Assembly (NCBI GenBank): GCA_028716165.1
Contig: JAQUQI010000005.1
Coordinates: 24,996 to 88,995 of the forward strand
Length of the DNA: 64,000 bases
Direction of reading: 5' to 3'
From: Candidatus Omnitrophota bacterium
Lineage (GTDB): Bacteria > Omnitrophota > Gorgyraeia > JABMRG01
The translations under genes were made by a program, and so were the position numbers. Shown piece by piece: positions 3,001 through 19,217 of this stretch; the first letter of the stretch is position 1; each line of letters begins with the position of its first letter. Below the pieces are notes generated by a model, which was given only the letters and a program-made list of their open reading frames with translations, did not search any database and had not been told where the DNA came from.

Positions 3001-6000
3001 GGAGACTTCCAGCCAAATGCCACAGACCCCATAGCGACCATAGAAGGTTTAAAATTAGCTGTTGCTATGCTGGACAGCCTAAGAAGCAATCCGGAGGCAT
3101 TGAAGCTGTTTAATCTTTTTACAGGCATTAATATTACTTTACAGGGAGCGTTGAACGGAAAACAAATAGATGCCTTGTATGGGTTGATATATACAAAAGA
3201 TGCGGATGGTAAAACTATATTAAAAGATAATGCCGATGACCCTGCTTCCGCTATTCAGGATATTATCACCTTCTACAACAATGTAGTCTCATATGTTATA
3301 GCCATATCAGCCAATCCCAATGCCATGGCCTTAGCAAACAGCGCTTTTGGTTTAGGCCTTACACCCAATATGACGGCAGGCAATATAACCCAGGCCCAGC
3401 TTAAGATATTCTCCAATAGCGACCTTGGCATACTCTATGATGAAGGAGGAGTTTTAAGAGATATTGATACTGTGGTGATGCTTTTTAAAAGGATGGGTGA
3501 GATATACGCTAATTGGGATAGCCAGGCGCAGTCTGCCTTGAGGATATTTTCTGGTGTGGACATAGCGCCAGGCCTAGACTCTTTAAACTCTGATCAGATT
3601 AAAGCTTTTAACACTTTACTATTTGATAGAAATGGTAATCTTTATCTTACTGATGCTGAATTTGATGCCCAAACAGTAGTAGCTAATTTAAAGAGGGTTA
3701 TTTACAAAGTAGGAGATACTTATGTTACAGAAAACGGTTTAGCGGCATACAGCCTGAATAGCAATAGCCCGGGGGTAAAACCCCTCCTGCTTGCGCAGGT
3801 TACAAAAACCGGTAAACATGATAGGATGTATATAATTGATCCGTCTATACCTAATACTGATAATGTCTATGCCGAGATTCTGGAAGGCGATATTGATCTG
3901 GATGCCGGCACTATCAATCTGAAGTTTGTTGTTAATGTAGGGCGTGACAGCGCGGGTAATCGCATATCTTCTGTCACAAACTATGATGGCCGGGAGGTCC
4001 AGAGGGGAACACTTGCGGGCTTTATAGACAGTTCCGGCGGTTATATACCGTCAGATGTTTATATAGACGATTTATCTGATATCGCGGCTGTCAGGATGAA
4101 AATTACTACATCTTTGTTTGGCCAGCAATGGTATGAGGAATATGATTTTAATGGAAACATTGTCAGAACTATAAAGCCTTATCCTGAAACAGGCCAGGCC
4201 GAGGTTGTTAAATACAATGTTAAGGAAAATGGATCATTTCCGGATAGCCGGTCATATTTATATGAATATGATAACAACTTGAACGATATAAAGACTGATA
4301 AGCCTGTTATGGATTTGAGGGAATCAAAAATTATCGGCTATACGGATATGAATGACCCTATTGCTTTTGTTCATGATTCAGTTACCGATTCTTATTGGCA
4401 GGAAATAATAGACCCTGTTGGCAGGGTAAAAGCGAAAGTAATAGGGGATTATAATGCGGCTGCAGGTATTTTTAGTCCTATTGCCATAGAAATCCCTTCG
4501 TATGATGGATATATTGGGGCATCAGCTATCGGCTCCAGCAAGATGTATGAATATTCTAAAGCTAATGGATATAATACCGCCGCGTATGCCGGTTCAAAGG
4601 TTCTTATTGAAACAGGCAAAATAGAAATTATAACAATAGACGGCCGCGTTTGTGTAAGAAGCTTTTACTTTAATAATAAGACCAATGTCAGCTGGCAGGA
4701 GATAAAAGACGCCAGAGGTAATATTATAGCTAAACTCTACCAGTATCCTGATTCGGGTTCATCCGGTTATCGCGCGTCATTCGTTGAAATTATGCAGTAT
4801 GAGCCCGGTATAGGTTCAATAGAAGGCATTGCCCAGAGCGGAAAGCTTTATTTATTCACGGGCAGAGAAGACTTGAGAGATTTTAGCATAAGCCAATATG
4901 CTGATAAACCTGTCCTGACGGAGAGTTATCTTGTAGATCATTCCGGAAAGGCTATTACTACGGTTGAGGCCCTAAAGATGGACAGCCTTGTTTACCAGTA
5001 TGAGAACAAGGTCTCAAAATTAGTATGGCAGGAAGAAAGGGACAACCGTGGACGGCTGATAGCAAAGTATACCGGTGTAAGTTCGCGTGATGACCAAGGC
5101 AACTTGACAGGTTTTTCAAGAAAGGTTGTTGAGAAGATTACGCCCACAGGCATATTGGGTGTCATGCATATATCCGCTACAAGTAATAGTTATTTATATG
5201 AAACCTACCAAGGTGAAAAAGGAAAACATCTTAGTGAATATAGACCCGAATTTGCTTATGTGTCAGCTCAAATTATCAATGATTCCGGCAATGCAGTAGA
5301 TTCGCTTGCAGGTATTGCGCAAGATAATACAGTTACTTATAGATATGTAAATCACAAAACACATTTAGTGTGGGAAGAGGTGCGAGACGGTTTTGGGCGC
5401 ATTATAAGACGCTATGACGGTGAAACTTTAGGGGACAAATCAAGCCCATTGACAGAACCCTTTAAACGTGTTCTTGTTACCGATCAATATTATGAAGGTC
5501 TCATTGGTGATTTTGGTTTAAGTACCAGCAGTGAAGTTTATTCGCTGGATGAGTCCGGTAAGAAAGTCGGTAATCCGATTGACCAATCAGAACTTTTAAG
5601 CAATAAGTTTGAAAAACTTGATTTTGAACAATTGTCCGCAACCGATAGTTTTGGCGCGCTTAAGAGTATTTTTGATGAACAGGGCAGGATATATTATCAA
5701 GGCAGCCGTGCTTACAAAAGATCTGATATACGGGGAGAGGGTTTATTAGAATACCGTGAAATAAAAAATAATACGGGATCTATTGAAGAGAGGTTTGAAG
5801 GTTACAAGGATCCAAGCGGTAAATTCGTTAGCAATCTAAAAAGATACTTTTTCTACCCGGACAGCGATATCTGGCGTTCATTTAGTATTGCCCAAAAAAC
5901 AATTCTTACTATATTTGTTGACGGCAAAGAGATTATTTTTTCTGTTGCCAATAGAACAAGTTTTGATGAACAGACAGGGGATATATCTTATAGCTGTAAG

Positions 6001-9000
6001 AAGGGCAAGGGTATTATTAATTTCCCGCAAATTACATATACCAATCTGGAGCAGAGCCTTGACCTGTTATTTGAAGATGCCAAAGGTTTTGAATATGTGA
6101 CCTATGCATGGCAAGAAATAAAAAATAATAGAGGATGGCTTGTGCAGACGAGAGAAGGGTTTGGCCTTGATGATAAAAATTTTCCGATGGGCGTTCCCAG
6201 ATACATTACTTTCTTAAAAGGTTATTCGTTGGATATACCCATTAGTTTAGAGGCTCACATATATAAATATGATGACAATGCCGGTGAGCGTCTTGACGGA
6301 CAGGTTATCCGGACAAAGCAAACAGAATCAGATTATAGGCACGGTACCAAGGTTGGGTCTCTGCAGGGCCTGCATTTTACAGATAACATAGCTGTATACG
6401 ATGTTAATGACACCCGTATCAACAGAAAGTCTGTTAATAATAGCGGATACAGAATGGACGGCAGGCTTGCTTGGGAGATTCACGCCGGGAAAATGTTTAG
6501 AGATAAGGTTTATTTAACATATTTTAATGAGTTGGAATGCGCTGATTATAGCGCGCGGCTTGTCGGTGTGCTTTCTCCGATTGCGGGTAGCAAGTTAAAT
6601 ATCACAAACCGTCTTGCCGAAATAAAACAAGAACCTTATAAGACACATTATACTATTATGATACCAAGCAAGCCCGGGTCTTATATTGTGTGGGATAAAA
6701 CGCCTGACCAGGCAAAAAATGTTTGGTTTGCTGTTGACCGGTTTATGGATGGCGATGAAATTGATACGGAAAAGGTTTCATCCAAAGGCTTTACTCGGGC
6801 CGTAGAAAACAGGAATATTTTTACAGCCCCATCTGAAGATTCGGCTCTTAACCTCGCGGAACAAGACGGGAAATATTTTTCCGAAGGGGAATTCTTGTAT
6901 GAAATTAAGAATAAATACACCCCTGTTTTGTGGAGATCCTATCATGAAAACAGCATACGAGAATACATTGGCGTTCAATTCAATAAACACATTAAAAATT
7001 CATGGTTATATAATGCTATTGTGGAATCCAATAAACGCGATACATTATCGCCTATCGTTATAACAACGGCAGTATCTTTGGCAGCCATAACATTTTTACT
7101 GCCTTTGGCATTGTTTTTGTTTACATACGTTTTGTCGTATGTTCATTTCAAAAAACTCGGCAAAAAGCAAATCGCGGATACCAAAAGTTCCGGTTTGCCG
7201 GGCGAGGGGGGAGATATTGCTTCGGGCAGGGCGCCATCCGCACAGGCGCCTGGTCACGCGTCTGCTAAAGTTTCGCCTGGCGCGCCTTCTGTGCCTGATC
7301 AAGAAATTAGGGTCAGGGTTGCCGATATAAATCGTCATTTGTATCTTAATAAAGCTTTCACTGATTATTTGATTTCTTTGTACTATAAGACTGATGAAGA
7401 ACTGTTCGCTTTGTTAGATGCCTATTATCCCGACACTCATAGTGAAAAACCCGCCATGCTTTCAGAGCGTTATAAATACAGTATGGTATTGAATAACAAT
7501 ACGGTTTCGCCTGATAGCAAGCAAAGAGCAAAGTATGATTTTGTTGATAGAGTTTTTACAAAACCTATATCATATTTGATGCTTGCAATCATGATTGACC
7601 AGGCTGAAAAATGGGACTGGATGAATAAAGGCGAACTTGATAAAGGTGACAGAATTACAGGCGGCCTTGCAGATAATTTCTGGCCGTTTACGGACAGGGA
7701 TATGAAACGGCTGTTTGAGTACTTTAAAGCAGACGGAAAAGACCCTATCTTGGAATTAGGCCTGTATAAGTATCTTGGCGCAACAACGCTCCAGCAATGG
7801 TATATGGACGCTAATATAAAGGCTCTTAAAGAGAAAGCAGATAAAAATACGACCGAGAAGCAAGCGAAAGCTAATGTTAAGAAAAAGAAAGACCATAAAT
7901 TGGAAAAAGGAAAGCTGATTGAAGAAGCTATCAAACCCGCTAAAGAGTGGCTTGCTAAAAGATATGAATATGAAGGCCTGCATCAGACTGTATACCCTAT
8001 GAAGGTTAATAAGATTATCAATCTCGTCTGGCGTGTTTTCGCTTTAGGCGGGACTGCCGGCTTGATTGCTATGGCAATAACTTCATTTTCATCGTTTGGT
8101 GTTATTGGCCTTGTTTTTACCGGATTGATCTGGTCGTTTGTCCTTGTTGAAACGCATAAAATGCTTCAATATGCGCAGTTTCATAAGAATTGGCTCCAGG
8201 GCCTTCGGACCATGTTTAAGGCCAGGGCTGATTATAAAGGCCCTCTTTCAGAGGCCGAACTAAAAGTAAAAAAGAATTTCTTCAAGGCGTATTTTGGATG
8301 GATGGGGACATACGCGGCTGTTATAGTGGGCTTTAGCCTGCTTTATAGTGTTGGCAGTATACCATGGTTTGGTTGGCTTGCCGCTATCCCTATTTTAGTG
8401 ATTTCTTTGCGGGAATCTTTCAGGAGCTGGTGGTATATTTTTACAGAATCTGCCGCCACGGCAATAAGCCGTAACCAAAGACTGGATAGCCTGAAACGGT
8501 ATGAAGATATAGGCAAACAAGAGCTTGACAGGATACGCCGCAATGAATATTTGAAGGATGTTTTTAAAGATGTTGTTATAGAAGCAACGCTTTCGGTGGA
8601 GTCAGGTTTTCATCTTATATCAAAACAGGAAGAACAGGCACTTATAAAAGTCCTGAACGATCCGAAAGCAAAAAAGTTGCCGGATCTTAAAAGCCCTCAT
8701 GCTAAACAGGAAATCATCAAATGGTTTAATACGATACTTATGTTTGATGAGGATGAATTTAAGAGAATATATGACCAGACGAAACTTGATGAGCTTAATC
8801 CGTCAATATTCAAGGGGACAGGTAAAAAGAGAGTTTTACCCACACGCGATTTTCTTGACGCGGAAGACGGTGAGACAAAGGATGCCAAGGGCGTTATCAC
8901 AGAATATACACCCGCAGGCATTATAAAATCCGGTTTTTATGTGTTTAAAGAAGAATTCAAAGAGTCGTGGGAAATTTTTCTTAGAGATGATATTTTTAAT

Positions 9001-12000
9001 GGTGTAGCAGTTGATGATGCTTTTCTAGAACGCCTGATGGATCCCAAGACAACCCTTAAACAAACCATAGAAGACATCGCGCAAAAATTAGGCAGAACGC
9101 AAAAGGATATAGAAGAATACATAATTTCAAAATGGATAGTATTTCGTGCTGACGGGTATTTAAAGACACTTCTTTTTGCTGAACGCGCGGGAGAAGCGGC
9201 ATACAGGGTTTTAATAAAGCACAAATTTAAAGACGAAAATGGCCGTGATCCAAGTGAAGCGGAAATAAACGATATTTTGAAAAAACATCTTATGTTTATT
9301 CATGTCCATGAAGATATAGATCCGGATATACAGAACTGGGGTGGAAAGAACCCTAGCGAGATTATTAATATATTATGCGATACAAACAGGCCGCAAGGAA
9401 CCTATACGATAAACGGCTGTTCTTATGCTGATACAGGTAGCGAAAAGAGCTTTAATAGAACATTTACGCCCCAGGATTCAAACAAAATAATTCTTTCAAC
9501 GAAAGAATTTAAAGGTCATGATTATCTTAAGGATGAGGCAAAAAGATGGGTTGTTAAAACCGATAAGTGGTCAGTAACAGCTCGTTTTATAGAAAAGTTT
9601 TTGAAAGACATAGTCAAAGAAGACGCTATGATTGTCAATCTGGATAGGGATCATTTTTTCTATCCATCCGAATTTTTCATGCTCCCGTTTTTAGCGCAAA
9701 GATTTACTTCCGAAGATAATCTTGGTTATCTGACCACAAGGCTTGATATGAGGACGGGGTATGTCGCCCCTACCGGCGCCGCGCATCAGGTAGCAGAAGA
9801 TACATGGAATTTAAGGACATTGCTCGCGGAAGCTCTTTTGGGCGCGTCCTCTTATTACGGCCCGGGATTAGTGCGTTGGAGTGTTATGAGGAGCTGGGGC
9901 GCTTATATGTCTAATATAGAGGACACCGCCGCGGCGCACGAAGCTATAATGGATGGCATGCGCGGCGACCATACTACCTGGATTACCTGGGGCAGGCCAA
10001 GAGAAATGGTCGGCGCTTCTATCCTTGATTTTCAGAACAGGTTTGGCGGACTTGTTATTGATGAATTTCTTTCAGTGCATTATCAGAAATTATTAAAAAG
10101 CGATAAGGCGCATTGGACTGAAAAGCTGACAATATTCCAGAATTTTGATTTTTACTTTAACAAACCATTGATACCGCACTTTAATCTACTGATCTTTTTG
10201 TTCTCATTTTTTATTAATTTTACTCCGTTTTCATTTTTTGCCCTGCCGATATTATTTGTAAGCCTTGGGTATCTGTTTTCACAGGCTATAACATCGGGAG
10301 GCATAAGATTATTCCATGCCAAACAGCCGTTTTTAAAGGCCTGGGCGTCTTATTCAAAAATGTTCTGGGGCCTTGTGTTTACTTTCGTTCCTTTGATACC
10401 CATGCACGGCGAGAAGGCATTAAATGCTTTTAAGGGTACCGCAGGAAGATTCAGCAGCGGTATTAAAGATATTTTCTACCCTGCCGTAAAGTTTAGGGAA
10501 TTATACAATCTTTACAAGCCGTCCATTCGCTGGGGAGTCGCATTATTAGGGATATTATGCTTGGCGCCGACACATCCCTGGGCTATTGTGACCCAGATAT
10601 TTTTTCATATATTCCCTATCGCGTTTATTTTTGGGCCTTTTATGAAAAATGCCCCTGCTAACAAGAAGATAGCGGCCTCTGTTTTTGGCGTAAGCGGAGC
10701 ATTGTTTGCTTTAAACGCCATCTTTGCCTTTATGCCTATGCCTTTTGTAGCGGCAGTGGCTTTAGGTATCATTATTGCCGCAGGGCTGACTGGTAAAGAA
10801 AAATATACCAAGGGTATAACGCACGGGTTATTGGCTATAGTATATTATCTGTTAAGAATAGATGATATCTTTTTTGATCGTCCCGGAGCCCGGGGCCCAG
10901 ATGCAAAAGGTGTAAAAACCAAAGTCAAAGACCGCAAGTATAGCCCCTTAATGACATCATTGCTGATATCAGTATCCCTGCCTTTTTATGTCCTGCGGCT
11001 TGATTTATTAGGAGCATTAATAAAAAAACAGGATTCAAAAGCGGAATTAGGGGCTGGTTTGGAATTGGGCCTTGATCTTTCAAGAAAAATATTTAACCCT
11101 TTGAATGAGTCTTCCGGAAAATTTGCCGCTCTCATGAACGATTCACTTAAAGCGCTTATGTCTCTGGCACAATCCGACCAAAACTTAGACGCTTATTTGC
11201 AAAATTTATTAAGCAAAGAAGATAATATTTCTAAAAATATAAGCATAAGGGTATTAAAGAACTTGCCTGTTAACGCGGCAAGGTATCTAAATGATATGGG
11301 TTCTGTTGAAATAGTTTTAAATGAAAGATTTGTGCTTTCTCTTCTTAATGATTATGACTCATACCCTGTTGTAAAATATATACTTGCCGAACGCCTGTTT
11401 CATGAATTAGGCCATGATAATAAGACTGGAACAGCGCAGGAAGAAGTTGACGAAGAGGCCGAGCTTATAGCCAGGGACTTAGAACTTCACTCCATCATAT
11501 CCTCTGATATCCAAAACGAAATCAATAAATATTTTCAAGATAAAAAACCATCTTTTCCTTCAGGTTATTATTTTGTATTTTTAGACAAACTGTCAAAACT
11601 TGGCGATGGCCAAAGATCCGCGAGTATAAGAGATTATATAAGGCAGAACGGCCTGGCTATAGGCAGGCTTAGTGATGATGAAATAAATGCGCTATCGGTT
11701 GAGGAGCTTGTTCAATTGATAGAGAGTGTTCTTGACATGAGCGGGAAAGAAATAGCGAATAAGTTTTTATTGTATTCGGCCGCGCCTGGTACCGGCAAAG
11801 GCGAAGTTATGGACGCTATCTTTACCGAAGGCAAAGGTAAATACGCTCATCTTGTTGATAAGCTGACACTTTATCACACAAGGTCTCCGCGCGTTAAAAA
11901 AGGTATATCCGAAAAAGATGGCATTGCCTATCATTTTAGAGGAGAGGACGAGCTAAGACAGCTTGAAAAAGAGGGCAAGATTATTACCGCTCTTGTAAAT

Positions 12001-15000
12001 AACCAGCTTCAAGGTATGGCATTAGAGACTTTTTACGAAGAAATTACAATAAGGAAATCCGATTTAGCTGATAGCAAAAAGGCTGTTGTGCTTAATGATG
12101 ATATAAAAATAGAGGAAACCGATGAATACATAAAAATCCGCCGAAAAATACGCGGCCTGAATGATATCTTTAAGGGGCCTAAGCTTGCGATACTTGAGGG
12201 CGGCTATGGATGGTTTGAGAGTATTAAAAAAGACCCGCGTTATAAAGAACAACATAAAGATGTTTTAACAATATTTATATCTCCTTTTACTGATGAGGAA
12301 ATAGGTATAAGGGCTCTTAACAATGCCTGGGTTGATTCAAAATTCAAATTGCCGGAAGAAAAGGCGGCTGCTTATAATGAAATTTTTGTTGTAATTAAGG
12401 AATTGCAAAACGAAATAAACCTTGTCAATGATGCCAATTTACAGCAAAGGGTGATAAGAGCCGTAGAGGATAACGCGCCTTCGCTTAAGGATTCCGCGGC
12501 TTGTCACAATGCTCAAGTAATAGATAGCAATGAATTCTTAAGCAGCTTAAAAATTGATATTAAGTCCCCCGGCGCGATAGATAAGGTCAAAGCCCTCGCG
12601 TATGAAGTAAACAGAAGGCTTTCTATGCGGGACGGCGAAATCAAATTCGCTTATTCTATCAAAGACGACCCCGCCGGTTATGACAGGTATCAGAGGGTGC
12701 TGGAAGGCATTATGCAGATAGTTAATAAAAATGAATATGACACCGTTTTGACGAACACATGGGGCTATACTGATAATGCGAGAAATCAAAACATAGAGAA
12801 ACTAACAATGGAATTTTCAAAAAGCTTTTTCTCGCATGTGGTAAAAGGCCTCCGTGATTCAGCCAAGGCCAGTTCAAAGGCTTTTGCAAAACGAGCATAT
12901 CCTGAGGGGTTATTAGATATGGCAAAAAAATATTTCAATTCAGATATAGAGAAAACCCTTAAGCAATTAAAGGATTGGGCAAAAGCTTATAATGACGCTG
13001 TCAAAAACAAAGAGATACTGGATACGGAAGAAATGACAGTGGAAAGACTGCTTAATATAAAAACAGCAGAAGGCCAGACGGATGCTGTAGAATATTTTCA
13101 TATAATTGATTCTGACGGTAATTATATCGGCATCAAGCCAAGGCCTCTTGCGCATCTTTCTAAAGCAAATGAAGATTGGCACAGGAGCGTATTTGTCATC
13201 GTAGTTGATGAACAAGGCAGGATGCTGGTGCAGACTCGTTCTGCCAATAAAGACCATGCCCCTAATGCCAGAGATATTTCTACGGGCGGGCATATGGGCT
13301 TATTGGATGATGGGCGAAATCTCGCTGATACGACAAAAGAAGTTGCCCTAAAAGAACTTGGGGAAGAGTTATTTAACATAGGCAATCTTAAGGATTATAG
13401 TATTTCTCCTGACAGGCTTTCTATGATAAGCGAGGTAGACGGGCTAAGGCTTTCCGTTCAATATACGACCCCTGTTAAAGGGTGGGATAATGAGCGTGTC
13501 ACTGTGTTTCTTTATTGCGCATCAAAAATGGATATAGAAAGAATTGACGCGGCAGCAAAAGCGATAAGTGACGAAAAGGCTTCATTTACCGCTTTTGAGG
13601 GTGAGGTAGCGGCTATGGAATGGGTTGCAATATCAGATGAATGGAATAAATTTAAAAACATGCCAGATTCTGACAGGCGCGTCAATTATGGGGCCGGTTT
13701 TATAAAGTTGTTTACGGATTACGATCGGGATGTATCGGATCCGGATACTGTTTTAGGAAAGATAGCGCGAATGTCTAATGATCTCAAGGCGCTCTATGCC
13801 AAGTTTTCAGAGTACGAAAAGAGGCTTGGCGAAAGATCTATAGGCCAATTTGTTGGGAAACCATTTGATCCTAACAGGCATATTTATCGTCCGAAGGTAG
13901 GCCCTGATGGCGAGATGCTGCCATTTTCCGGCTTCACAGTAGCTAAGAGGATAACGGAAGGGAAGCTGCGTGAGGCATTAATCGCATTTCAAGAAACAAT
14001 GAAAGAAGAGCTTAAAGCCGCGGGCATGGGCGATGTAGTGGCATTTCTTGATCCTGCCTCGCTTCATATGACTATAGCGGATATTGATCCCAGCCGGTCA
14101 TATCCAAAAGGAACAAGTTTTGAACAAGCCGGACAAAGGTTAGGCCAGATAGACAGCGCTTTTAAAGATATAGGCACGCCCGGCGCAGTACAGTCTACGG
14201 TCCGTGGCTTAGGCCTTGGGAATACGATCTCGGCGCTTGTAAGATTTACTCCAGAAGATCTGGACAAGGCCCTTTTGCTTGAAGGCGCTGTTCAGAAATC
14301 CGCGGATGTGTTCAATAGGCAGTTTACCGGGCATATAAGCTTAGGATATATAGCAAAAGAACCTGAAGATTATGACAAGTTTATCGCGATTCTCCAGAAA
14401 TACGCAGATTATAATTTTGGCGAACTGTTAATTGATACAATTGCTTTATTGCATTTTTCCGACATGAATCATTATACGCCTTTAAAGGAGAAGAATTTGG
14501 ATACAGGTGAGATTACAGACCGTTCCGAAGCAAAAGAGTTTTTGGAGTTTTTAAGAAAAGCCCCCGAAACAGCTCAGGATGAGGTTGTAGGTGGAATTTT
14601 CGGCATAATGACGGCAATTTTGGAAAACGACCCCCGGGCTGGAGATGTCAAGAAAGCCCCCGAAACAGCAGAAAGGCCCGCTGACGAGCTCGTAGATGAA
14701 CTGTACCGCAATAAAGAGCCTATGGGTTCTATACGAAATATTGCCGACTTGGAAAAACTGGCATTGGATAATATTAATGATAATATGGTTGTGGAGCCTA
14801 TAAAAAAGGTTCTTATTGATATTCTTAATGATGAGCAGACGGCCGGAGAGGATTATATTTTTGTTCGCGAAATGGCGGCTTATGCGTTGAGAATATTCGC
14901 GGATATCAATATTATACGTTCGCTGATGACCGTTGCTTCGCTTGAAAACGCGATGAACACTGAAACAGCTGGCAATGAGCTGCCGCCAGCCATTGCGGGC

Positions 15001-15519
15001 CTTGATCTTGCCGGCGTTGCCGATTATTCGGTTGAATATCAGCTTGCCTTATCATTACTGGACTATTCGCCTTCCGGACAGCTGTTTGTTAATAGAGACA
15101 AGCAGGCAGTGATAGTTTACTCGGATGCTCTCAAGCAAAGCAGGGCATTGCAGGATATCCTTAGGGCGTCTGTTCAGGACGAGAGAAGGTTCTATTTCGT
15201 TAATAAGACATCCCTAAGTTCCGGTGAATTTTTAGCAGGGGTCGGCCTGGATACTTTAAATTTTGATAATATTATTGAAGCCGAGGATATGTCCGCAGGG
15301 CAAATAGCCGAAACTGTAATGTCCGAATTGGCTAATCAGCACATAACCCAAGCCCGCGTTTTTGCCGCATTGGATCAGGATTTAATGTCGTGGAAAACAG
15401 CTTCTATTGAAACACTCCTCATGCTTCTAAAGGACAAGAGGTTTGAGATAATATCCGATTACAGCCAGCAGCATGCCGAATATATCAGGACGCATGCCCA
15501 GGCGTTAACAGCAGCATAA
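1..15519 (+). CDS. Giant multidomain membrane protein, 5'-partial (>5144 aa). Contains tandem ~68-aa repeats, Rhs/YD-like repeats, three TM clusters, a guanylate-kinase-like domain with degenerate P-loop, a Nudix/IDI-like domain, and a C-terminal module paralogous to the ORF at 16714.
   Basis: One uninterrupted frame from base 1 to the stop at 15517-15519. The ORF track begins at a TTG at 85, but codons 1-84 have no stop, so the true start is upstream. Hydrophobic helices lie at about nt 7040-7140, 7990-8420 and 10150-10960. GK-like motifs are APGTGKG ... LYHTRSPR..DGIAYHF ... ILEGGYGW ... IFISPFTDEEIG. The IDI/Nudix-like stretch is HRSVFVIVVDEQGRMLVQTRS...GGH...KELGEEL. Confidence 0.85.
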   Translation, partial: TYVFNFDAETGRVTTGELKRYADSGRPILIALEYTPGKEGKSPSFKARVFGSQQDMEDAQDLLTSGSQIVLVSKADSFVVHEVQKAGEGYVARLDGNGAPVVWIHAEYNKGNPDVERSGAVSASIQDMRLIADIQSVSKKLRLKGPDGNDITGLAQITDANNLESVLNKDLGEPVQVSTELPDHKYVIMAYNSGTKQVLPFYGKSTFDVYTQFYNSPEHEKEFELLNLLKIGNIIYTDDNSSWLGGFEPQRGGVRRAKITMFNDNKGNEYPVKIGHDAQTRDDLYAYGVLEIDIRDDSFNPTGSWVYYLNKQGLPIDRLPHEEACNLRNVSINFSGKNENAKLLINDIAYGQNAHDKFGAFLPFAADVYDVSGGAPRPVGIHIDDRGRNRIYFEFTSQATQSADGTWSVPALAFCDMYDDQNVYLGQYAFNSIVKWTEGEDGAKAYTYEIGNALSWGVEAQSGPYAGNKFVYILDSTRKKDDGSYIISNEMLGKLGTTERGSHILSGKDLDTLGIDKNSKAVSRILRAAQIYQAGFEAGDPSRVMLFDSSYPGREKEAVAMSQYPGGELEMVIRGPNSKEIARFTFGDSDSYDTNKFGLYRKIVEDFQTDQSEKIKQMALSEGIITIPVKLGNYYIGHRYNNETSLYEHGMFKTLADLAKAGYAIYDEITAAQIFRLDSDTPAKIEFFANDGSSLGRAITDQKLSLSVFDKGGEKIGENVYEFVFDRLTGNVVIGKFLYFIDTKKAEEMLGKMLEALREDPVALEAFNLLTGAGIKDSGKLSQAQLDVLYTLIFKNDLGEFHENAADTEKTLEGLRLASSMLAALRGNQGALEAFNALTNAGFANEGYLADSQLAVLYGMIYDGEGEKHKHAGDPKTTMEGIILAKKALDQLRANPSELAAFNLIAGVNIKLSGPLTAEELTALYTLVYDSDGDFYRDSAGYAYTPIESIKFAGPMLKALRLDLEALKAFNLFTGVNIQPTGKLSQSQINALYGLIYGANGDFQPNATDPIATIEGLKLAVAMLDSLRSNPEALKLFNLFTGINITLQGALNGKQIDALYGLIYTKDADGKTILKDNADDPASAIQDIITFYNNVVSYVIAISANPNAMALANSAFGLGLTPNMTAGNITQAQLKIFSNSDLGILYDEGGVLRDIDTVVMLFKRMGEIYANWDSQAQSALRIFSGVDIAPGLDSLNSDQIKAFNTLLFDRNGNLYLTDAEFDAQTVVANLKRVIYKVGDTYVTENGLAAYSLNSNSPGVKPLLLAQVTKTGKHDRMYIIDPSIPNTDNVYAEILEGDIDLDAGTINLKFVVNVGRDSAGNRISSVTNYDGREVQRGTLAGFIDSSGGYIPSDVYIDDLSDIAAVRMKITTSLFGQQWYEEYDFNGNIVRTIKPYPETGQAEVVKYNVKENGSFPDSRSYLYEYDNNLNDIKTDKPVMDLRESKIIGYTDMNDPIAFVHDSVTDSYWQEIIDPVGRVKAKVIGDYNAAAGIFSPIAIEIPSYDGYIGASAIGSSKMYEYSKANGYNTAAYAGSKVLIETGKIEIITIDGRVCVRSFYFNNKTNVSWQEIKDARGNIIAKLYQYPDSGSSGYRASFVEIMQYEPGIGSIEGIAQSGKLYLFTGREDLRDFSISQYADKPVLTESYLVDHSGKAITTVEALKMDSLVYQYENKVSKLVWQEERDNRGRLIAKYTGVSSRDDQGNLTGFSRKVVEKITPTGILGVMHISATSNSYLYETYQGEKGKHLSEYRPEFAYVSAQIINDSGNAVDSLAGIAQDNTVTYRYVNHKTHLVWEEVRDGFGRIIRRYDGETLGDKSSPLTEPFKRVLVTDQYYEGLIGDFGLSTSSEVYSLDESGKKVGNPIDQSELLSNKFEKLDFEQLSATDSFGALKSIFDEQGRIYYQGSRAYKRSDIRGEGLLEYREIKNNTGSIEERFEGYKDPSGKFVSNLKRYFFYPDSDIWRSFSIAQKTILTIFVDGKEIIFSVANRTSFDEQTGDISYSCKKGKGIINFPQITYTNLEQSLDLLFEDAKGFEYVTYAWQEIKNNRGWLVQTREGFGLDDKNFPMGVPRYITFLKGYSLDIPISLEAHIYKYDDNAGERLDGQVIRTKQTESDYRHGTKVGSLQGLHFTDNIAVYDVNDTRINRKSVNNSGYRMDGRLAWEIHAGKMFRDKVYLTYFNELECADYSARLVGVLSPIAGSKLNITNRLAEIKQEPYKTHYTIMIPSKPGSYIVWDKTPDQAKNVWFAVDRFMDGDEIDTEKVSSKGFTRAVENRNIFTAPSEDSALNLAEQDGKYFSEGEFLYEIKNKYTPVLWRSYHENSIREYIGVQFNKHIKNSWLYNAIVESNKRDTLSPIVITTAVSLAAITFLLPLALFLFTYVLSYVHFKKLGKKQIADTKSSGLPGEGGDIASGRAPSAQAPGHASAKVSPGAPSVPDQEIRVRVADINRHLYLNKAFTDYLISLYYKTDEELFALLDAYYPDTHSEKPAMLSERYKYSMVLNNNTVSPDSKQRAKYDFVDRVFTKPISYLMLAIMIDQAEKWDWMNKGELDKGDRITGGLADNFWPFTDRDMKRLFEYFKADGKDPILELGLYKYLGATTLQQWYMDANIKALKEKADKNTTEKQAKANVKKKKDHKLEKGKLIEEAIKPAKEWLAKRYEYEGLHQTVYPMKVNKIINLVWRVFALGGTAGLIAMAITSFSSFGVIGLVFTGLIWSFVLVETHKMLQYAQFHKNWLQGLRTMFKARADYKGPLSEAELKVKKNFFKAYFGWMGTYAAVIVGFSLLYSVGSIPWFGWLAAIPILVISLRESFRSWWYIFTESAATAISRNQRLDSLKRYEDIGKQELDRIRRNEYLKDVFKDVVIEATLSVESGFHLISKQEEQALIKVLNDPKAKKLPDLKSPHAKQEIIKWFNTILMFDEDEFKRIYDQTKLDELNPSIFKGTGKKRVLPTRDFLDAEDGETKDAKGVITEYTPAGIIKSGFYVFKEEFKESWEIFLRDDIFNGVAVDDAFLERLMDPKTTLKQTIEDIAQKLGRTQKDIEEYIISKWIVFRADGYLKTLLFAERAGEAAYRVLIKHKFKDENGRDPSEAEINDILKKHLMFIHVHEDIDPDIQNWGGKNPSEIINILCDTNRPQGTYTINGCSYADTGSEKSFNRTFTPQDSNKIILSTKEFKGHDYLKDEAKRWVVKTDKWSVTARFIEKFLKDIVKEDAMIVNLDRDHFFYPSEFFMLPFLAQRFTSEDNLGYLTTRLDMRTGYVAPTGAAHQVAEDTWNLRTLLAEALLGASSYYGPGLVRWSVMRSWGAYMSNIEDTAAAHEAIMDGMRGDHTTWITWGRPREMVGASILDFQNRFGGLVIDEFLSVHYQKLLKSDKAHWTEKLTIFQNFDFYFNKPLIPHFNLLIFLFSFFINFTPFSFFALPILFVSLGYLFSQAITSGGIRLFHAKQPFLKAWASYSKMFWGLVFTFVPLIPMHGEKALNAFKGTAGRFSSGIKDIFYPAVKFRELYNLYKPSIRWGVALLGILCLAPTHPWAIVTQIFFHIFPIAFIFGPFMKNAPANKKIAASVFGVSGALFALNAIFAFMPMPFVAAVALGIIIAAGLTGKEKYTKGITHGLLAIVYYLLRIDDIFFDRPGARGPDAKGVKTKVKDRKYSPLMTSLLISVSLPFYVLRLDLLGALIKKQDSKAELGAGLELGLDLSRKIFNPLNESSGKFAALMNDSLKALMSLAQSDQNLDAYLQNLLSKEDNISKNISIRVLKNLPVNAARYLNDMGSVEIVLNERFVLSLLNDYDSYPVVKYILAERLFHELGHDNKTGTAQEEVDEEAELIARDLELHSIISSDIQNEINKYFQDKKPSFPSGYYFVFLDKLSKLGDGQRSASIRDYIRQNGLAIGRLSDDEINALSVEELVQLIESVLDMSGKEIANKFLLYSAAPGTGKGEVMDAIFTEGKGKYAHLVDKLTLYHTRSPRVKKGISEKDGIAYHFRGEDELRQLEKEGKIITALVNNQLQGMALETFYEEITIRKSDLADSKKAVVLNDDIKIEETDEYIKIRRKIRGLNDIFKGPKLAILEGGYGWFESIKKDPRYKEQHKDVLTIFISPFTDEEIGIRALNNAWVDSKFKLPEEKAAAYNEIFVVIKELQNEINLVNDANLQQRVIRAVEDNAPSLKDSAACHNAQVIDSNEFLSSLKIDIKSPGAIDKVKALAYEVNRRLSMRDGEIKFAYSIKDDPAGYDRYQRVLEGIMQIVNKNEYDTVLTNTWGYTDNARNQNIEKLTMEFSKSFFSHVVKGLRDSAKASSKAFAKRAYPEGLLDMAKKYFNSDIEKTLKQLKDWAKAYNDAVKNKEILDTEEMTVERLLNIKTAEGQTDAVEYFHIIDSDGNYIGIKPRPLAHLSKANEDWHRSVFVIVVDEQGRMLVQTRSANKDHAPNARDISTGGHMGLLDDGRNLADTTKEVALKELGEELFNIGNLKDYSISPDRLSMISEVDGLRLSVQYTTPVKGWDNERVTVFLYCASKMDIERIDAAAKAISDEKASFTAFEGEVAAMEWVAISDEWNKFKNMPDSDRRVNYGAGFIKLFTDYDRDVSDPDTVLGKIARMSNDLKALYAKFSEYEKRLGERSIGQFVGKPFDPNRHIYRPKVGPDGEMLPFSGFTVAKRITEGKLREALIAFQETMKEELKAAGMGDVVAFLDPASLHMTIADIDPSRSYPKGTSFEQAGQRLGQIDSAFKDIGTPGAVQSTVRGLGLGNTISALVRFTPEDLDKALLLEGAVQKSADVFNRQFTGHISLGYIAKEPEDYDKFIAILQKYADYNFGELLIDTIALLHFSDMNHYTPLKEKNLDTGEITDRSEAKEFLEFLRKAPETAQDEVVGGIFGIMTAILENDPRAGDVKKAPETAERPADELVDELYRNKEPMGSIRNIADLEKLALDNINDNMVVEPIKKVLIDILNDEQTAGEDYIFVREMAAYALRIFADINIIRSLMTVASLENAMNTETAGNELPPAIAGLDLAGVADYSVEYQLALSLLDYSPSGQLFVNRDKQAVIVYSDALKQSRALQDILRASVQDERRFYFVNKTSLSSGEFLAGVGLDTLNFDNIIEAEDMSAGQIAETVMSELANQHITQARVFAALDQDLMSWKTASIETLLMLLKDKRFEIISDYSQQHAEYIRTHAQALTAA
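2233..3700 (+). repeat. In-frame tandem array inside the giant gene: 5 clear and 2 degenerate copies of a ~201-204 nt (~68 aa) unit, consensus ..ALEAFNLxTGxNI..G.Ls..Q...LY.LIY..DGDF......DP....EGL.LA..ML..LR.NP
   Basis: ALEAFN / ELAAFN / ALKAFN / ALKLFN recur at nt ~2287, 2491, 2692, 2893 and 3094 with a 201-204 nt period. Two further decayed copies sit near 3330 and 3540-3650. Confidence 0.7.
4380..6160 (+). repeat. Dispersed Rhs/YD-like repeats inside the giant gene, motif [SVA]W(Q/E)E..D..G(R/N)(L/I)I..Y, at least 5 copies
   Basis: SYWQEIIDPVGRVKAKV (~4390); SWQEIKDARGNIIAKLYQY (~4691); VWQEERDNRGRLIAKYTG (~5025); VWEEVRDGFGRIIRRYDGE (~5375); AWQEIKNNRGWLVQT (~6110). These resemble the YD-repeat core D..GRL....Y, flanked by Y.YD/Y.YEN motifs. 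Confidence 0.4.
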
Positions 15520-15566
15520 TATTTATAGCGTATTCTTCATATCCTGGCTTAAGGCGAGCGGCTATT

Positions 15567-16694
15567 ATGAGAAGGAGCATAAAAATATTTGTTTTATACG
15601 CAGGCCTTGCCATTATATCCATGGCAAGCCCCGCTTATTCTTGGCAAAATTTTTTATGCGCCTTAAGGCCTTTATCGCTGGCGCAATCGCAAAGGATTGA
15701 ATCAGATATAAAGTCCGCCTTCTTGTCAATGCGTATTTCAGATATTGTGTTTATCGCGGATAAAGATGGGACTTTGTCAAAGCCTAATGAGCCTGTCCGC
15801 GGTTCCACGGTTAACCTTATAAGTGAAATTTTTAAAATGTACGGCCGTTCGCATATCGTTATCTGCACAGGGGGTATACTGGAAGACAGCGAGAATAATC
15901 TTATAAAGCCTTTGGAGGAAATGATAAAGTCTGGTGATTCCAGTTGGTTTGAGCGTTTAACATATTATTTTATGGCTGGACTGGGTAAAATATCTTGGAA
16001 TAAGCAAGGAATACGAACGATTGAGTATTTTGGAAAACCTTTTTCAGCAGATGACCAGATGTTTATCGTAAGAAATCTGGCTAAATCTCTGGCAGGCAAT
16101 ATAGAGGGCATGCGCCTGCCTGAAAGCATTGATAGGGCCGAAAGCTTTGACGCCTTTAGTAAAATATTTGATGAATTTGTAGCAGAAAATAAAAGCGTTC
16201 TCGGCCATATTGAGATTGCCAACGGCATGGGCCGGCAGTTTACCATAGAGTTTAAAAAATCGTCCGAGAAACAGGCATTGCCTGAATTGCAAAATTCTGA
16301 TTTTACCCGAAAGGTCGCGGAAACTTTTAAAGAACTTCTTGCACAGCGCCCTAACCTCCAGAATCTGCATGTAAGATACGGTGATACATATGTGGATTGC
16401 AGTCCGGTGGATAAAAAAGATGCCATAGAATATTTTTTAAGCGAGAAAAATTTTGAAAGCCCTCTTATTGTGGCGGTTGGAGACGGTAGTAATGATTATG
16501 GGTTTTTATTTAAAGCCGCAGACGATAGGACGAAGCTATCTTTTTTTGTAGGCAAAGGCCATGAAGGCTTGCCCGATCATGTGACTCTATGGCAGACGCC
16601 CGGCCCGGCTGGAACGGAAGAGATACTGTCGTCAATAGTCAAGTCAGTCAAAAGCTCATTTGACATGGAATATAATATAAGAATTTGCGCCTAA
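15567..16694 (+). CDS. Secreted HAD-superfamily (subfamily IIB, Cof/sugar-phosphatase-like) hydrolase
   Basis: N-terminal signal peptide followed by FLCALRPLSL. HAD motif I is DKDGTL (nt ~15760) and motif IV is GDGSNDYGF near the C-terminus. Confidence 0.6.
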   Translation: MRRSIKIFVLYAGLAIISMASPAYSWQNFLCALRPLSLAQSQRIESDIKSAFLSMRISDIVFIADKDGTLSKPNEPVRGSTVNLISEIFKMYGRSHIVICTGGILEDSENNLIKPLEEMIKSGDSSWFERLTYYFMAGLGKISWNKQGIRTIEYFGKPFSADDQMFIVRNLAKSLAGNIEGMRLPESIDRAESFDAFSKIFDEFVAENKSVLGHIEIANGMGRQFTIEFKKSSEKQALPELQNSDFTRKVAETFKELLAQRPNLQNLHVRYGDTYVDCSPVDKKDAIEYFLSEKNFESPLIVAVGDGSNDYGFLFKAADDRTKLSFFVGKGHEGLPDHVTLWQTPGPAGTEEILSSIVKSVKSSFDMEYNIRICA

Positions 16695-16713: not shown

Positions 16714-19044
16714 ATGCACGGATTAAGGGTATTTAAAAAATCTTTGATATTTGTGTTAATATGCTGTTTTTTTATCAATCAGCAGCTTTTGGCCTGCGAA
16801 TTTTTTTGCCTAAGGCCCGCGTCTGTTAATAACTCCAACACCCCTCTTGTTTTACAGCAACCGGATGATTTAAACAAATTATCTGTAAAAGAACTTGAGG
16901 CCAAACTCCAAAATATTAAGTTGATTAAGCTGAAGGAGCTGAATAAATTGACACCGTCCAGCAAGGAGGAGCTTAAAGATCTCGCTGGCAGGGTAGCTGA
17001 AATGGGCGATTACTTGAGTGCGGTTATACAAAAAGAGTTATTGGGAAATGGTAAAAAATATGGCAATATTATGGAAAAATTTATGCTATTTTCAGCAGGT
17101 CCCGGAACTGGTAAGGATTATGTTTTTTCTAAAACATTTGGAAGAGAAAAAGAAAAAAATGCAAATAAAAAATGGAAGTATCCACACTATACAGATGGGA
17201 GCTTCTTTAAGTTAGTTGAAAAATTGATATTGTATCATTCAAGGCCGTTAAGAACAAAAGAAAATGAAAAAGACGGCTGGGAGTATAATTTTGACACAAG
17301 ACTTGATCATAATCGTATAAACACATTAGAAAATAAAGGAAAAATTAAAACCGCAACAGTAAACAGGCAGTTACAGGGTATGGCAATAAACGGATTTGAT
17401 GAGAAAGGCGTGGTAATAGAGAATGTTATCAATCCTGCAGATTTTAAAGCAGGTGATAAGGTAACAAAAACTATTGAATTTTTGGATGGAGAAAATCTCA
17501 AACAAGATGTTTTGGTTAAAAGGCAAGGCTTCGAGCAAAACCTGAAAATAACCACAGGTATAAAAGATGATGAAATAGGAGATGGCAAGCCCGGCGTCTT
17601 TATTGCGGGTGATATTATTGAAGAGGTTTCTCATAAAGATGTAACAGTTAAAAGGCCTGTAAAAGGCATAATGGATATTATTGATGGGCCCAAACTTGGG
17701 GTGGTTGAGGTAGGATATGGCTGGTTTAGGATGCTTACAGGTCCTCAATCTCCGACGAAGGATGTGTTCAAAATTTTTATAGCACCGTTTGACGAAAAAG
17801 AGATGCGATACATGACTAATGCAAGGAAATGGATTGAGCGCAGATTTACCAGCTATAATGAAAGAGCTTATGCCCATTTGTATATTTCATATAAGATGCA
17901 AGAAGCTAAGAAAGAATTATCAAACTTTAAATTCAAAGAAATAAGAGAATTAAAAAAAGACATAAAAGAACGCCTTAAAAAATTAAATAAAGATGAGGAT
18001 CTTATTGAAAAAGAGTTGGCTGATATTGCAGGCAAGGTTATGGAGTCTGGTATTAAAAAATTTGGATCAGACAAACAGACATATGCGAATCGTTTATTGG
18101 AATACGCAAAGCTTATAGAGAAAGAAGATTTTATAGTGCATCTGAATGAAAGATTGGAAAGCGATTTTGGTGATCCAAATGGAATAACGGACGTTAATCA
18201 AATAAGAGAAGCGAGATTGCTTGCTTACGAGATTAACAGAAGGACCCTTGCAAGGGATAGAGCTGTAGGGTTATCAAATGATGACAAACAGCCTGTTGAG
18301 TATGATAGATATAATAGATTGCTTGAAGGCATAATCCAGATTATGCATCGTAACGAATATGCCCAAAAAGGCGGTTTTGTTGTAATTAATAGGTGGGTAT
18401 TTGATCAAAGCAAGCAACAGGAATATGATGATGTTTTAAAAATACAATTTGCCGGAGCGTTTTTCTCAAATTTGATCGGAAAAATACAAGAAAAAATAAA
18501 ATCTCCTTCAGCAGGCATTGTCCCGGAGCGCGCGCCGGATTATGATGAGCAGTACATTTTAGCCGACGGGCTTCTTCGCTATTTCCCGGAGGGCATAATA
18601 AATGTCCCCGCGGAAAATCAAGCCGTGATAGTTTATTCAGATTCGCTCGCGGAAAGCGCGGCATTGCAGGATATAATCAGAAAGTCGTCAGCAGATGGCA
18701 GGAAATTTTATCTTGTCAATAAACAGGATTCCGTTTCCGCCGAAGATTTTTTAAGAAGCCTTAATATTGACAGGGATATATTTGAAAGCAATGTTTTTTT
18801 GCAAAACTCGCTTTCAGCCGATCAACTGGCGCTTAATATAGCGGCCGTGCTTAATAAAAACGGTATCCGCCAGGGCAGGGTGTTTGCCAGCGCGCAAGAC
18901 GATCTCATTGCCTGGAGCAGACAGGGCCTTATTGAAGCCCTTGTAATGCTACTAAAGGACAAGAAGTTTGAGATAATATCGGATTACAGCCAGCAGCATA
19001 CCGAATATATCAGGACGCATGTCGAGGCGCTGAAAGCGGCATAA
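16714..19044 (+). CDS. Secreted/lipoprotein 776-aa paralog of the giant protein's C-terminal region: GK-like domain with degenerate P-loop plus conserved C-terminal module
   Basis: RBS AAAGGAGG 6 nt upstream of the start. Signal peptide with a possible lipobox LLAC, then EFFCLRPASV. GPGTGKD...LYHSRPLR..DGWEYNF...VEVGYGW...IFIAPFDEKEM aligns with the giant protein's GK-like segment. The last ~150 aa align with the giant protein's C-terminus. Confidence 0.7.
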   Translation: MHGLRVFKKSLIFVLICCFFINQQLLACEFFCLRPASVNNSNTPLVLQQPDDLNKLSVKELEAKLQNIKLIKLKELNKLTPSSKEELKDLAGRVAEMGDYLSAVIQKELLGNGKKYGNIMEKFMLFSAGPGTGKDYVFSKTFGREKEKNANKKWKYPHYTDGSFFKLVEKLILYHSRPLRTKENEKDGWEYNFDTRLDHNRINTLENKGKIKTATVNRQLQGMAINGFDEKGVVIENVINPADFKAGDKVTKTIEFLDGENLKQDVLVKRQGFEQNLKITTGIKDDEIGDGKPGVFIAGDIIEEVSHKDVTVKRPVKGIMDIIDGPKLGVVEVGYGWFRMLTGPQSPTKDVFKIFIAPFDEKEMRYMTNARKWIERRFTSYNERAYAHLYISYKMQEAKKELSNFKFKEIRELKKDIKERLKKLNKDEDLIEKELADIAGKVMESGIKKFGSDKQTYANRLLEYAKLIEKEDFIVHLNERLESDFGDPNGITDVNQIREARLLAYEINRRTLARDRAVGLSNDDKQPVEYDRYNRLLEGIIQIMHRNEYAQKGGFVVINRWVFDQSKQQEYDDVLKIQFAGAFFSNLIGKIQEKIKSPSAGIVPERAPDYDEQYILADGLLRYFPEGIINVPAENQAVIVYSDSLAESAALQDIIRKSSADGRKFYLVNKQDSVSAEDFLRSLNIDRDIFESNVFLQNSLSADQLALNIAAVLNKNGIRQGRVFASAQDDLIAWSRQGLIEALVMLLKDKKFEIISDYSQQHTEYIRTHVEALKAA

Positions 19045-19217
19045 TAAAACCTTAAAGGGCCTTACGCGCCCGGCAGATTATCGCGGTGATATTATGCGGT
19101 TTGATATCCTGTATTGATACCGTTTTCTATATCAGAAAATCGGATTATACCGTGCTTTTTACCAACAATCGCTAAAATTATTTATCAAAAACCGGATAGG
19201 ACACACTAAATAAACAT

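Follow-up and report, generated by a model that had tools for sequence, protein, structure and literature searches.

Bacterial paralogs that undergo ectopic (interlocus) gene conversion evolve in concert over short tracts, as in tufA/tufB, the rRNA operons, and surface-antigen cassettes. In the window analyzed in this study, which is a 64,000-nt stretch of a contig from an uncultured Candidatus Omnitrophota bacterium, two paralogous genes share a 3'-terminal block that resembles these systems in its short and sharp-edged tract, in its homogenized synonymous sites, in the placement of its copies as direct repeats a few kb apart, and in the grouping of its paralogs, which is by genome within the tract and by orthology elsewhere. 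In contrast to the classic cases, the tract is ~80 nt long, occupies only the very 3' end of paralogs that are saturated elsewhere, and coincides with the maximum of peptide conservation. This coincidence suggests that selection preserves the island of homology on which recombination draws. The block was most probably shaped by purifying selection on the peptide and short-tract gene conversion acting together on the same ~30 codons. An earlier note on this DNA had offered conversion and peptide selection as alternatives; both were supported, and its either/or framing was not.

The protein domain that ends in this block recalls a second group of systems. Like the T9SS C-terminal domains, dockerins, PEP-CTERM and LPXTG signals, and encapsulin or microcompartment targeting peptides, the C-terminal domain (CTD) encoded here is one module found invariably at the C-terminus of unrelated bodies, and its restriction to one lineage and the signal-peptide-like N-termini of its carriers are as in shared C-terminal sorting or docking domains. 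Additionally, the giant proteins of Omnitrophota, as described in three sources (West-Roberts et al. 2023, 10.1101/2023.11.21.568195; Seymour et al. 2023, PMC10066038; a 2026 preprint, 10.64898/2026.06.07.730766), have very long genes, signal peptides, and few annotated domains, and the genes studied here resemble them in these features and in their phylum. Term searches of these three sources found neither this CTD nor any conversion between a giant and a small paralog.

The giant gene occupies positions 1..15519 of the plus strand and exceeds the left end of the window, as its frame is open from nucleotide 1 and covers at least 5172 codons; its syntenic ortholog in a relative (L001) was called at 8417 aa. 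Its ~1270 C-terminal amino acids are paralogous to a 776-aa protein, p776, encoded on the same strand at 16714..19044, such that the two paralogous regions lie in direct orientation 3.5 kb apart. The p776 protein begins with a signal-peptide-like N-terminus that includes an LRPAS motif, continues with a P-loop (GPGTGK) kinase-like region, and ends in the CTD. It is identical to the NCBI MAG hypothetical protein PHV77_03810 of Candidatus Omnitrophica and had no match in Pfam. Alignments placed the CTD at 15097..15519 in the giant (from DKQAVIVYSD to ALTAA and the stop codon) and at 18613..19044 in p776, both on the plus strand. The neighborhood also includes T2SS-like, PilZ, and glycoside-hydrolase genes, a further resemblance to the giant proteins of Omnitrophota.

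The shared block was found where the earlier note had described it, with an identity of 88-90% between the 3'-terminal ~100 nt of the giant gene (15421-15519) and those of p776 (18946-19044). The identity was 88.2% across the final 102 nt including the stop codon, where the copies differ at 12 positions, and it peaked at 95% in 15436-15495. Slightly extended, the block forms the longest direct repeat in the window (15405-15521 against 18930-19046, 87% over 117 nt), and a degenerate 45-nt pattern built from it had exactly two matches in the window and none in 100 shuffles. Perfect-match runs between the giant and p776 reached 21 nt in the window and 44 nt in L001. The boundary was as sharp as had been claimed: nucleotide identity was 0.27-0.67 in all 28 of the upstream 60-nt bins (587 aligned codons) and 0.87-0.95 in the tract, the maximum chi-square breakpoint was at 15405 (permutation p=5e-4), and the phylogenetic pattern changed over at the ATG at 15421. 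On the other side, the identity ended exactly at the stop codon, and the next 60 nt downstream were only 30% identical. Protein identity outside the tail was 29% between residues 101-618 of p776 and 3875-4287 of the giant and 43-44% in the CTD body, close to the 35-50% noted earlier.

Synonymous sites were compared among four genes, namely the giant and p776 of the window and of L001, with dS estimated by the Nei-Gojobori method. Rather than being uniform across the paralogous region, synonymous divergence was strongly uneven, and the orthologs also carry the tail. Inside the tract, dS between giant and p776 was 0.15 for the window pair and 0.34 for the L001 pair, and the ortholog dS was 0.34-0.45; upstream, the paralogs were saturated (pS 0.73-0.75) and the ortholog dS was 0.54-0.72. 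Synonymous-codon identity between giant and p776 was 22/26 in the tail and 21/45 in the CTD body (Fisher p=0.002), and similarly 23/29 and 19/46 in the L001 pair. Over the 587 codons that could be aligned in all four genes, informative sites of the body supported orthology at 459 positions, grouping by genome at 14, and a crossed pattern at 10, whereas the whole tail had four by-genome and two orthology sites, the latter both in its last 21 nt (Fisher p=2e-5). Within the tract alone, four sites grouped by genome and none by orthology across the two genomes. The by-genome states include L->I and Q->R, and comparison with eight outgroup copies identified both as derived states of the two L001 copies. 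With our own implementation of a run-length permutation test of the Sawyer/GENECONV type, the longest concordant fragment fell within the tail both in the window pair, at third positions (p=7e-4), and in the L001 pair (p=5e-5); the test was not significant for the ortholog pairs. Tail-specific conversion was not significant on a related contig with four CTD genes (L003, L004, L005, and L007).

The pattern itself shows gene conversion, for which we infer the following mechanism from the sequences. Non-reciprocal homologous recombination over ~80 nt between the paralogs would have homogenized their DNA, synonymous sites included, and the selected peptide would keep the copies alike enough to seed such recombination. 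Conversion appears to have recurred after the split of the window and L001 lineages, as shown for L001 and likely for the window lineage. The conversion tract in the giant spans the 27 codons at 15421..15501 (MLLKDKRFEIISDYSQQHAEYIRTHAQ), with a 5' edge between 15405 and 15421, and its partner in p776, the probable donor type, lies at 18946..19026, both on the plus strand. Both orthology-pattern sites of the tail fall in the final five codons and stop of the giant (ALTAA, 15502..15519, plus strand), where the giants have TTA ACA and the small proteins CTG/TTG AAA/AAG. Either the most recent tract stopped short of this segment, or separate selection acts at position -3 (T in the giants, K in the small proteins).

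The protein architecture makes a transfer from the p776-type copy into the giant probable, since the body of the giant resembles carriers of another tail type. Its last 700 aa without the tail matched best to carriers ending in LSQA or LIQA (P0031, 42% over 520 aa, E 2e-107), while its tail had identities of 81-91% with p776-type tails and of 53-59% with the tails of the LSQA and LIQA carriers. The CTD body of the giant is roughly as far from one subfamily as from the next (44-51%), and the argument on direction therefore depends on the region upstream of the CTD. As the clade sample comprised two genomes and the tract ~15 synonymous sites, the timing and number of events were weakly constrained, and one conversion near speciation followed by a later event in L001 fits as well as ongoing conversion.

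The tail peptide is evidently under strong purifying selection, as its consensus (MLLKDKRFEIISDYSQQH.EYI.TH.QAL.AA-COOH) is conserved across the family. Information content was 3.29 bits per column in LKDKRFEIISD, 2.85 in the whole tail, and 2.55 in the body. That this selection, combined with codon preference, produced the DNA identity without any recombination is quite improbable, even though few segments of the family are as conserved as the tail and several of its codons have low degeneracy (M, K, D, F, E, Y, Q, and H). An internal control was provided by the QAVIVYSD..ALQDI block (15097..15158, plus strand, paired with 18613-18674), which has the same information content as the tail motif (3.3 bits per column) and no sign of conversion: its nucleotide identity was 79%, and its synonymous-codon identity of 10/15 was within the outgroup range. 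Equally, the nucleotide identity of the QAVIVYSD block was 76-79%, with a within-genome synonymous identity at the background level. Between clades, the same tail peptide had a synonymous-codon identity of only 0.44-0.60, which is also background, as compared to 0.79-0.85 within a genome. Selection alone is insufficient in view of these two observations. Moreover, the by-genome sites include a synonymous one (ACC/GCC versus ACT) besides shared derived replacements, and the codons CTA, TCC/TCG, ACG, and GCG are specific to the clade in both giant and p776 and absent from the outgroup copies that are p776-like in their body.

Just as doubtful is a single old chimera, in which the giant gained a p776-type tail once in the common ancestor and no concerted evolution followed. 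The six pairwise identities among the four tails are indeed much alike (84-90%), and within the tract the ortholog and paralog dS are comparable in size. However, the lack of orthology sites beside the four by-genome sites, two of which are derived states common to both L001 copies, and a window-pair dS below either ortholog dS can only be accounted for by one or more events later than the split. An old chimera would involve the same mechanism as conversion and differ in its timing alone.

A third explanation, which the earlier note had also raised, is selection on the nucleotides themselves, through an element for 3' mRNA stability, localization, or regulation or an antisense feature in both transcripts. 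It is extremely unlikely despite the conservation of synonymous sites within the clade of the window and L001 and a sigma-70-like match on the minus strand at 15508-15479, as the minimum free energy of each tail did not surpass that of shuffled sequences when folded with and without downstream sequence (six folds, z between -0.69 and +1.47), Rfam had no match overlapping either tail, the identity stops right at the stop codon, synonymous sites vary freely in other clades, the ortholog identity of 88% in the tail is near the 81-85% of its flanks and needs no extra constraint, and promoter-like matches were below shuffle expectation (9 versus 11). A single sub-threshold Rfam match was located elsewhere, at 17060-17211. 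Finally, assembly chimerism at the repeat seems unlikely from the 12 differences between the copies, their unrelated downstream sequences, and the same arrangement in two independent assemblies.

With gene conversion on a selected peptide as the preferred reading, the mechanism is textbook and the domain is uncharacterized. The ~140-aa CTD had no sequence match to any known family. A family HMM search identified it in 51 cluster representatives among 1.84 billion proteins, always at the C-terminus: the match reached the last residue of the carrier in nearly all representatives and stopped one to six residues short in the rest. The carriers are 600-6637 aa long and include diverse enzyme domains in otherwise unrelated bodies, and most of the complete ones have a signal-peptide-like N-terminus. 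An AlphaFold2 model of the CTD (pLDDT 84) has a HAD-like Rossmannoid core of the alpha/beta/alpha type, in which the tail forms the last beta-hairpin and helix (strands 134-139 and 144-148 and helix 152-168, a strand-turn-strand-helix). The tail is hence not the free-standing secretion or sorting peptide or interaction helix that had been proposed, but the terminal part of a folded HAD-like domain; the idea of a shared signal survives in that a shared C-terminal module fits a common handle.

The CTD is probably not a canonical HAD phosphatase, as both the catalytic motifs and matches to HAD sequences or profiles are missing. Searches with 13 CTD members gave no HAD match in Pfam up to E=10, NCBIfam gave none for the CTD, a PDB profile search returned only chance matches, and hhalign against the HAD-IIB domains of neighboring genes gave probabilities below 1%. 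Inspection of the 13- and 51-sequence alignments indicated that HAD motif I (hhhhDxDx[T/V]) is absent, with strand 1 ending in (V/I)YSD(A/S)L, and that the Ser/Thr of motif II is likewise absent, with strand 2 ending in LVNK and N-K in its place. The alpha/beta fold also differs from the T9SS beta-sandwich, the Ca-binding dockerin, the transmembrane-plus-basic tail of PEP-CTERM and LPXTG proteins, and a short amphipathic peptide; the CTD tail is polar and charged without a hydrophobic span, and sortase- or exosortase-like genes were not found in the window.

Our best guess, preferred over a canonical phosphatase, is that the CTD serves its carriers as a shared handle at the C-terminus, used in docking, assembly, sorting, or turnover, and that its free -AA/-QA end is exposed. 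The occurrence of the whole domain as the C-terminal module of ~50 large proteins that are unrelated in other respects fits this idea without proving it. Every member of the family ends in -AA or -QA (ALTAA and ALKAA in the two proteins of the window), and the last six residues of the model had a pLDDT below 50. An ssrA-like degron, as recognized by ClpXP or a tail-specific protease, would require an exposed end of small non-polar residues of the -LAA type. The CTD proteins also have an N-terminal leader, in which a signal-peptide-like segment is followed by [S/T]LR[P/A]xS, and K-[S/T/A]-S-S-[A/S]-G junctions between enzyme modules, of which the CTD is the last. These junctions could be candidate processing sites; a wider literature search on the K-x-S-S-A-G motif gave nothing relevant. 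A more speculative and rather unlikely possibility is that the CTD, with its near-invariant tail and terminal -AA/-QA, is the shared recognition handle of an undescribed lineage-specific pathway that exports, processes, or assembles "beads-on-a-string" multi-enzyme proteins in Omnitrophota. If so, conversion of the tail would keep the giant and p776 compatible with one co-evolving partner.

The DNA block is unsurprising in its mechanism, and its worth is as a pointer to the most constrained part of an unannotated domain. This domain is the defining feature of a small group of very large multi-enzyme proteins in Omnitrophota, and the giant proteins of that phylum are as yet poorly understood. 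As the giant and its small neighbor were kept identical exactly at the tail, the pattern suggests that the tail contacts something that both proteins must recognize, and work on the targeting, assembly, or turnover of these giant proteins gains a concrete and testable handle in the CTD, with its tail and -AA end.

The window belongs to the genome of an uncultured Omnitrophota bacterium. The reading frame of the giant gene is open from nucleotide 1 and ends at 15519 on the forward strand, so that the gene exceeds the window. The protein of the 776-aa paralog p776 (16714-19044, forward strand) is identical to the NCBI entry 'MAG: hypothetical protein PHV77_03810 [Candidatus Omnitrophica bacterium]'. 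BLASTP aligned amino acids 101-618 of p776 with 3875-4287 of the giant at 29% identity, and amino acids 600-776 with 4971-5144 at 50%. The ends of the two genes were 88% identical at the nucleotide level over the last 102 nt, and 95% identical within 15436-15495. Of all direct repeats in the window, this block was the longest (117 nt, 87% identical). Third-position identity in a sliding codon window was 0.9-1.0 in this tail versus 0.1-0.45 in most upstream windows, and the similarity stopped at the stop codon, with the 60 nt beyond only 30% identical. Hence, the sharply bounded 3' block of about 100 nt described in an earlier note, which was made from the sequence without database searches, was confirmed. 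No further copies of the tail were found in the window at the DNA level. The tail lies at the end of a C-terminal domain (CTD) of about 140 amino acids, which was absent from p375, the gene between the paralogs, and from p1430, the 1430-aa gene after p776.

A syntenic relative of the locus (L001) was found on a JGI metagenome contig, which encodes a giant of 8417 aa, a HAD protein, an ortholog of p776 (770 aa, 71% identical), and a 1430-aa protein. Informative sites were classified in a four-gene alignment of 587 codons, comprising the giants (A1, A2) and the small proteins (B1, B2) of the window (1) and L001 (2). Upstream of 15421, 459 sites followed the orthology pattern (A1=A2, B1=B2), 14 grouped by genome (A1=B1, A2=B2), and 10 were crossed. 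From 15421 to the end, four sites grouped by genome, none were crossed, and only two followed orthology, both within the last 21 nt (p=2e-5 for tail versus body, Fisher's exact test). The tail clusters by genome, with homogenized synonymous sites in a bounded tract. Relative to eight outgroup copies, both L001 copies carried derived states at two of the by-genome sites (Leu to Ile and Gln to Arg), which indicates at least one conversion after the split of the window and L001 lineages.

Synonymous divergence supported such a post-split conversion. In the tract 15421-15501, the Nei-Gojobori dS was 0.15 between the window paralogs and 0.34 between the L001 paralogs, in contrast to a saturated upstream pS of 0.73-0.75 for both pairs. 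Between orthologs, dS was 0.34-0.45 in the tract and 0.54-0.72 upstream. A Sawyer-type run test located the longest concordant fragment of each within-genome pair in the tail, with p=7e-4 at third positions for the window pair and p=5e-5 for the L001 pair, and the ortholog pairs were not significant. A maximum chi-square breakpoint was placed at 15405 (p=5e-4). The low tract dS, the by-genome sites, the run test, and the breakpoint together bore out the proposal that recent gene conversion had occurred between the giant and p776.

Strong selection on the C-terminal peptide had been offered as an alternative, and it also proved to be real. Among 12 additional CTD loci recovered by scanning metagenome and genome collections, the tail peptide was near-constant (MLLKDKRFEIISDYSQQH.EYI.TH.QAL.AA). 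However, the synonymous-codon identity of the tail was only 0.44-0.60 between clades, in line with the saturated body, versus 0.79-0.85 for within-genome pairs, so that purifying selection on the peptide is not enough to hold the DNA constant. An internal control was provided by the QAVIVYSD..ALQDI block (15097-15158 in the giant, 18613-18674 in p776), which is conserved like the tail at 3.3 bits per column in a 51-sequence alignment. The block was 79% identical in DNA between the two genes, with a synonymous identity (10/15) inside the outgroup range and with informative sites that tracked orthology. A second conversion tract at these positions was thereby ruled out. With the control block at background, peptide selection accounts for about 76-79% nucleotide identity, and the excess in the tail is attributable to recombination. 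Additionally, the four tails of the window and L001 have the clade-specific synonymous states CTA, TCC/TCG, ACG, and GCG in common, which are missing from outgroup copies with a p776-like body.

Selection on the nucleotide sequence itself, in the form of a shared 3' mRNA element, did not hold up. Six folds of the tails, covering both genomes and made either alone or together with the downstream sequence, showed no excess stability over shuffles (z from -0.69 to +1.47), and no Rfam match was obtained at either tail with a permissive threshold. The sole Rfam match in the window was a sub-threshold 'thermometer' at 17060-17211, away from the tails, and promoter- and terminator-like matches were at or below shuffle expectation. 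The tail identity between orthologs (88%) was also close to that of the flanks (81-85%), requiring no nucleotide-level constraint. An assembly artefact was rejected, as 102 positions contain 12 mismatches between the two copies with a longest perfect run of 21 nt, their downstream sequences are unlike, and the arrangement recurs in the independent JGI assembly.

Bacterial paralogs are well known to undergo ectopic gene conversion, of which the tract of the giant and p776 represents a clean small example. The p776-type copy was likely the donor and the giant the acceptor, as inferred from sequence comparison. The last 700 amino acids of the giant without the tail best matched the giant-type carriers P0031 (42% over 520 amino acids, E 2e-107), P0027, P0007, P0026, and P0034, which have another tail subtype that ends in ...LSQA or ...LIQA. 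In contrast, the tail of the giant was 81-91% identical to p776-type tails and 53-59% identical to those of the giant-type carriers. Within the CTD body, the giant was about equidistant from all subfamilies, and the direction thus rests on the upstream architecture. The conversion may have proceeded by RecA-type non-reciprocal recombination between the two copies, which lie 3.5 kb from each other in direct orientation, and it would have been seeded by a homology island that selection maintains. The longest perfect run in the L001 pair was 44 nt. The last five codons may not have been part of the latest tract; alternatively, position -3, which is Thr in the giants and Lys in the small proteins, may be under separate selection. 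In a related MAG, four different large genes on contig Ga0268276_1000353 (54.6 kb; L003, L004, L005, and L007) end in the same CTD, and one of them is a fusion of starch synthase GT5, GT1, MbnB-like, DUF218, and NUDIX domains. Tail conversion was not significant among them, including some pairs with mildly raised tail synonymous identity (0.76-0.80 versus 0.60).

When 1.84 billion cluster representatives were searched with a profile, 51 members of the CTD family were identified, set apart by a sharp cut-off in score, and almost all of the matches reached the last residue of the carrier protein. The carriers ranged from 600 to 6637 amino acids and included unrelated modules, such as a protein kinase with an HD domain, HEAT repeats, and, in one carrier, a combination of starch synthase GT5, GT1, MbnB-like, DUF218, and NUDIX domains. 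The domain had no sequence matches in Pfam, NCBIfam, or PDB. An AlphaFold2 model of p776 amino acids 608-776 was confident (pLDDT 84, pTM 0.83) and predicted the tail as two strands (134-139 and 144-148) and a helix (152-168), with the last six residues disordered. On this model the CTD is HAD-like in fold. It is not filed as a HAD phosphatase: hhalign detected no relation to the HAD-IIB domains of the neighboring genes, and the canonical HAD motif I (DxD) and motif II Ser/Thr were absent by inspection. An SGNH/GDSL-like hydrolase, considered from the SD[S/A]L after strand 1 and the D....H in the tail, was ruled out since many members have Ala in place of the presumed catalytic Ser and the 'TPDE' tail subtype lacks the His.

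Other features were shared among the carriers. A motif, [K/R]-[S/T/A/P]-S-[S/A]-[A/S]-G, sits between the enzyme modules of carriers P0011-P0053, with 1-9 copies per protein versus at most 0.02 expected from shuffles, and one copy was always directly upstream of the CTD. It occurred in p776 (amino acids ~606-611, 'KSPSAG', nt ~18529-18546) and p1430 (amino acid 293, nt ~20094), and was not found in the visible part of the giant. It resembles a conserved site at which modular polyproteins are joined or processed. Most complete family members begin with a signal-peptide-like segment followed by '[S/T]LR[P/A]xS' (N-termini of P0011-P0044), with the first K.SSAG about 20 amino acids beyond in many carriers. 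Similar segments were observed in p375 (CALRPLS, 15567-15700), p776 (CLRPAS, 16714-16840), and p1430 (CLRPSS, 19218-19340), and may constitute a dedicated N-terminal leader. p375 (15567-16694) encodes a HAD-IIB-like hydrolase, and p1430 (19218-23510) has a uridine-kinase/PRK-like P-loop domain together with HEAT repeats and a HAD-IIB domain; signal-peptide-like N-termini are odd for such kinases and phosphatases.

The neighborhood also encodes a sugar ABC transporter, two glycoside-hydrolase types (GH2 and GH94), PilZ and PKD-domain proteins, and a GspC-like PDZ protein (47572-48273), fitting the published contexts of Omnitrophota giant genes. Across positions 1-64000, nearly all long ORFs were on the forward strand, and GC skew was positive throughout with a monotonically rising cumulative curve, consistent with one replichore and strong co-orientation. 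Four repeats spaced by about 305 nt at 45374-46341 are ordinary tandem PKD-domain repeats inside the gene of a 1306-aa PKD/Big_7 protein (43598-47518). No tRNA or tmRNA genes were found in the 64-kb window, the latter sought for comparison of its tag with the -AA end of the CTD. The TPA records of three GTDB-representative MAGs with the CTD (L012-L014) read 'uncultured Planctomycetia bacterium' while the window protein is labeled Candidatus Omnitrophica, which is probably a naming difference within the PVC group.

The CTD family appears to be undescribed: literature searches returned no account of the domain, of the junction motif, or of conversion between these genes, and term searches of the Omnitrophota giant-gene papers gave no mention of the CTD. 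Its strictly terminal position, attachment to unrelated bodies, charged invariant residues (K, D, K, E, D, and H), and invariant -AA/-QA end are suggestive of a handle shared by the carriers, for docking, assembly, sorting, or turnover. The converted tract coincides with one of the two conservation maxima of the domain, and the main value of the block is that it marks a constrained, uncharacterized terminal module.
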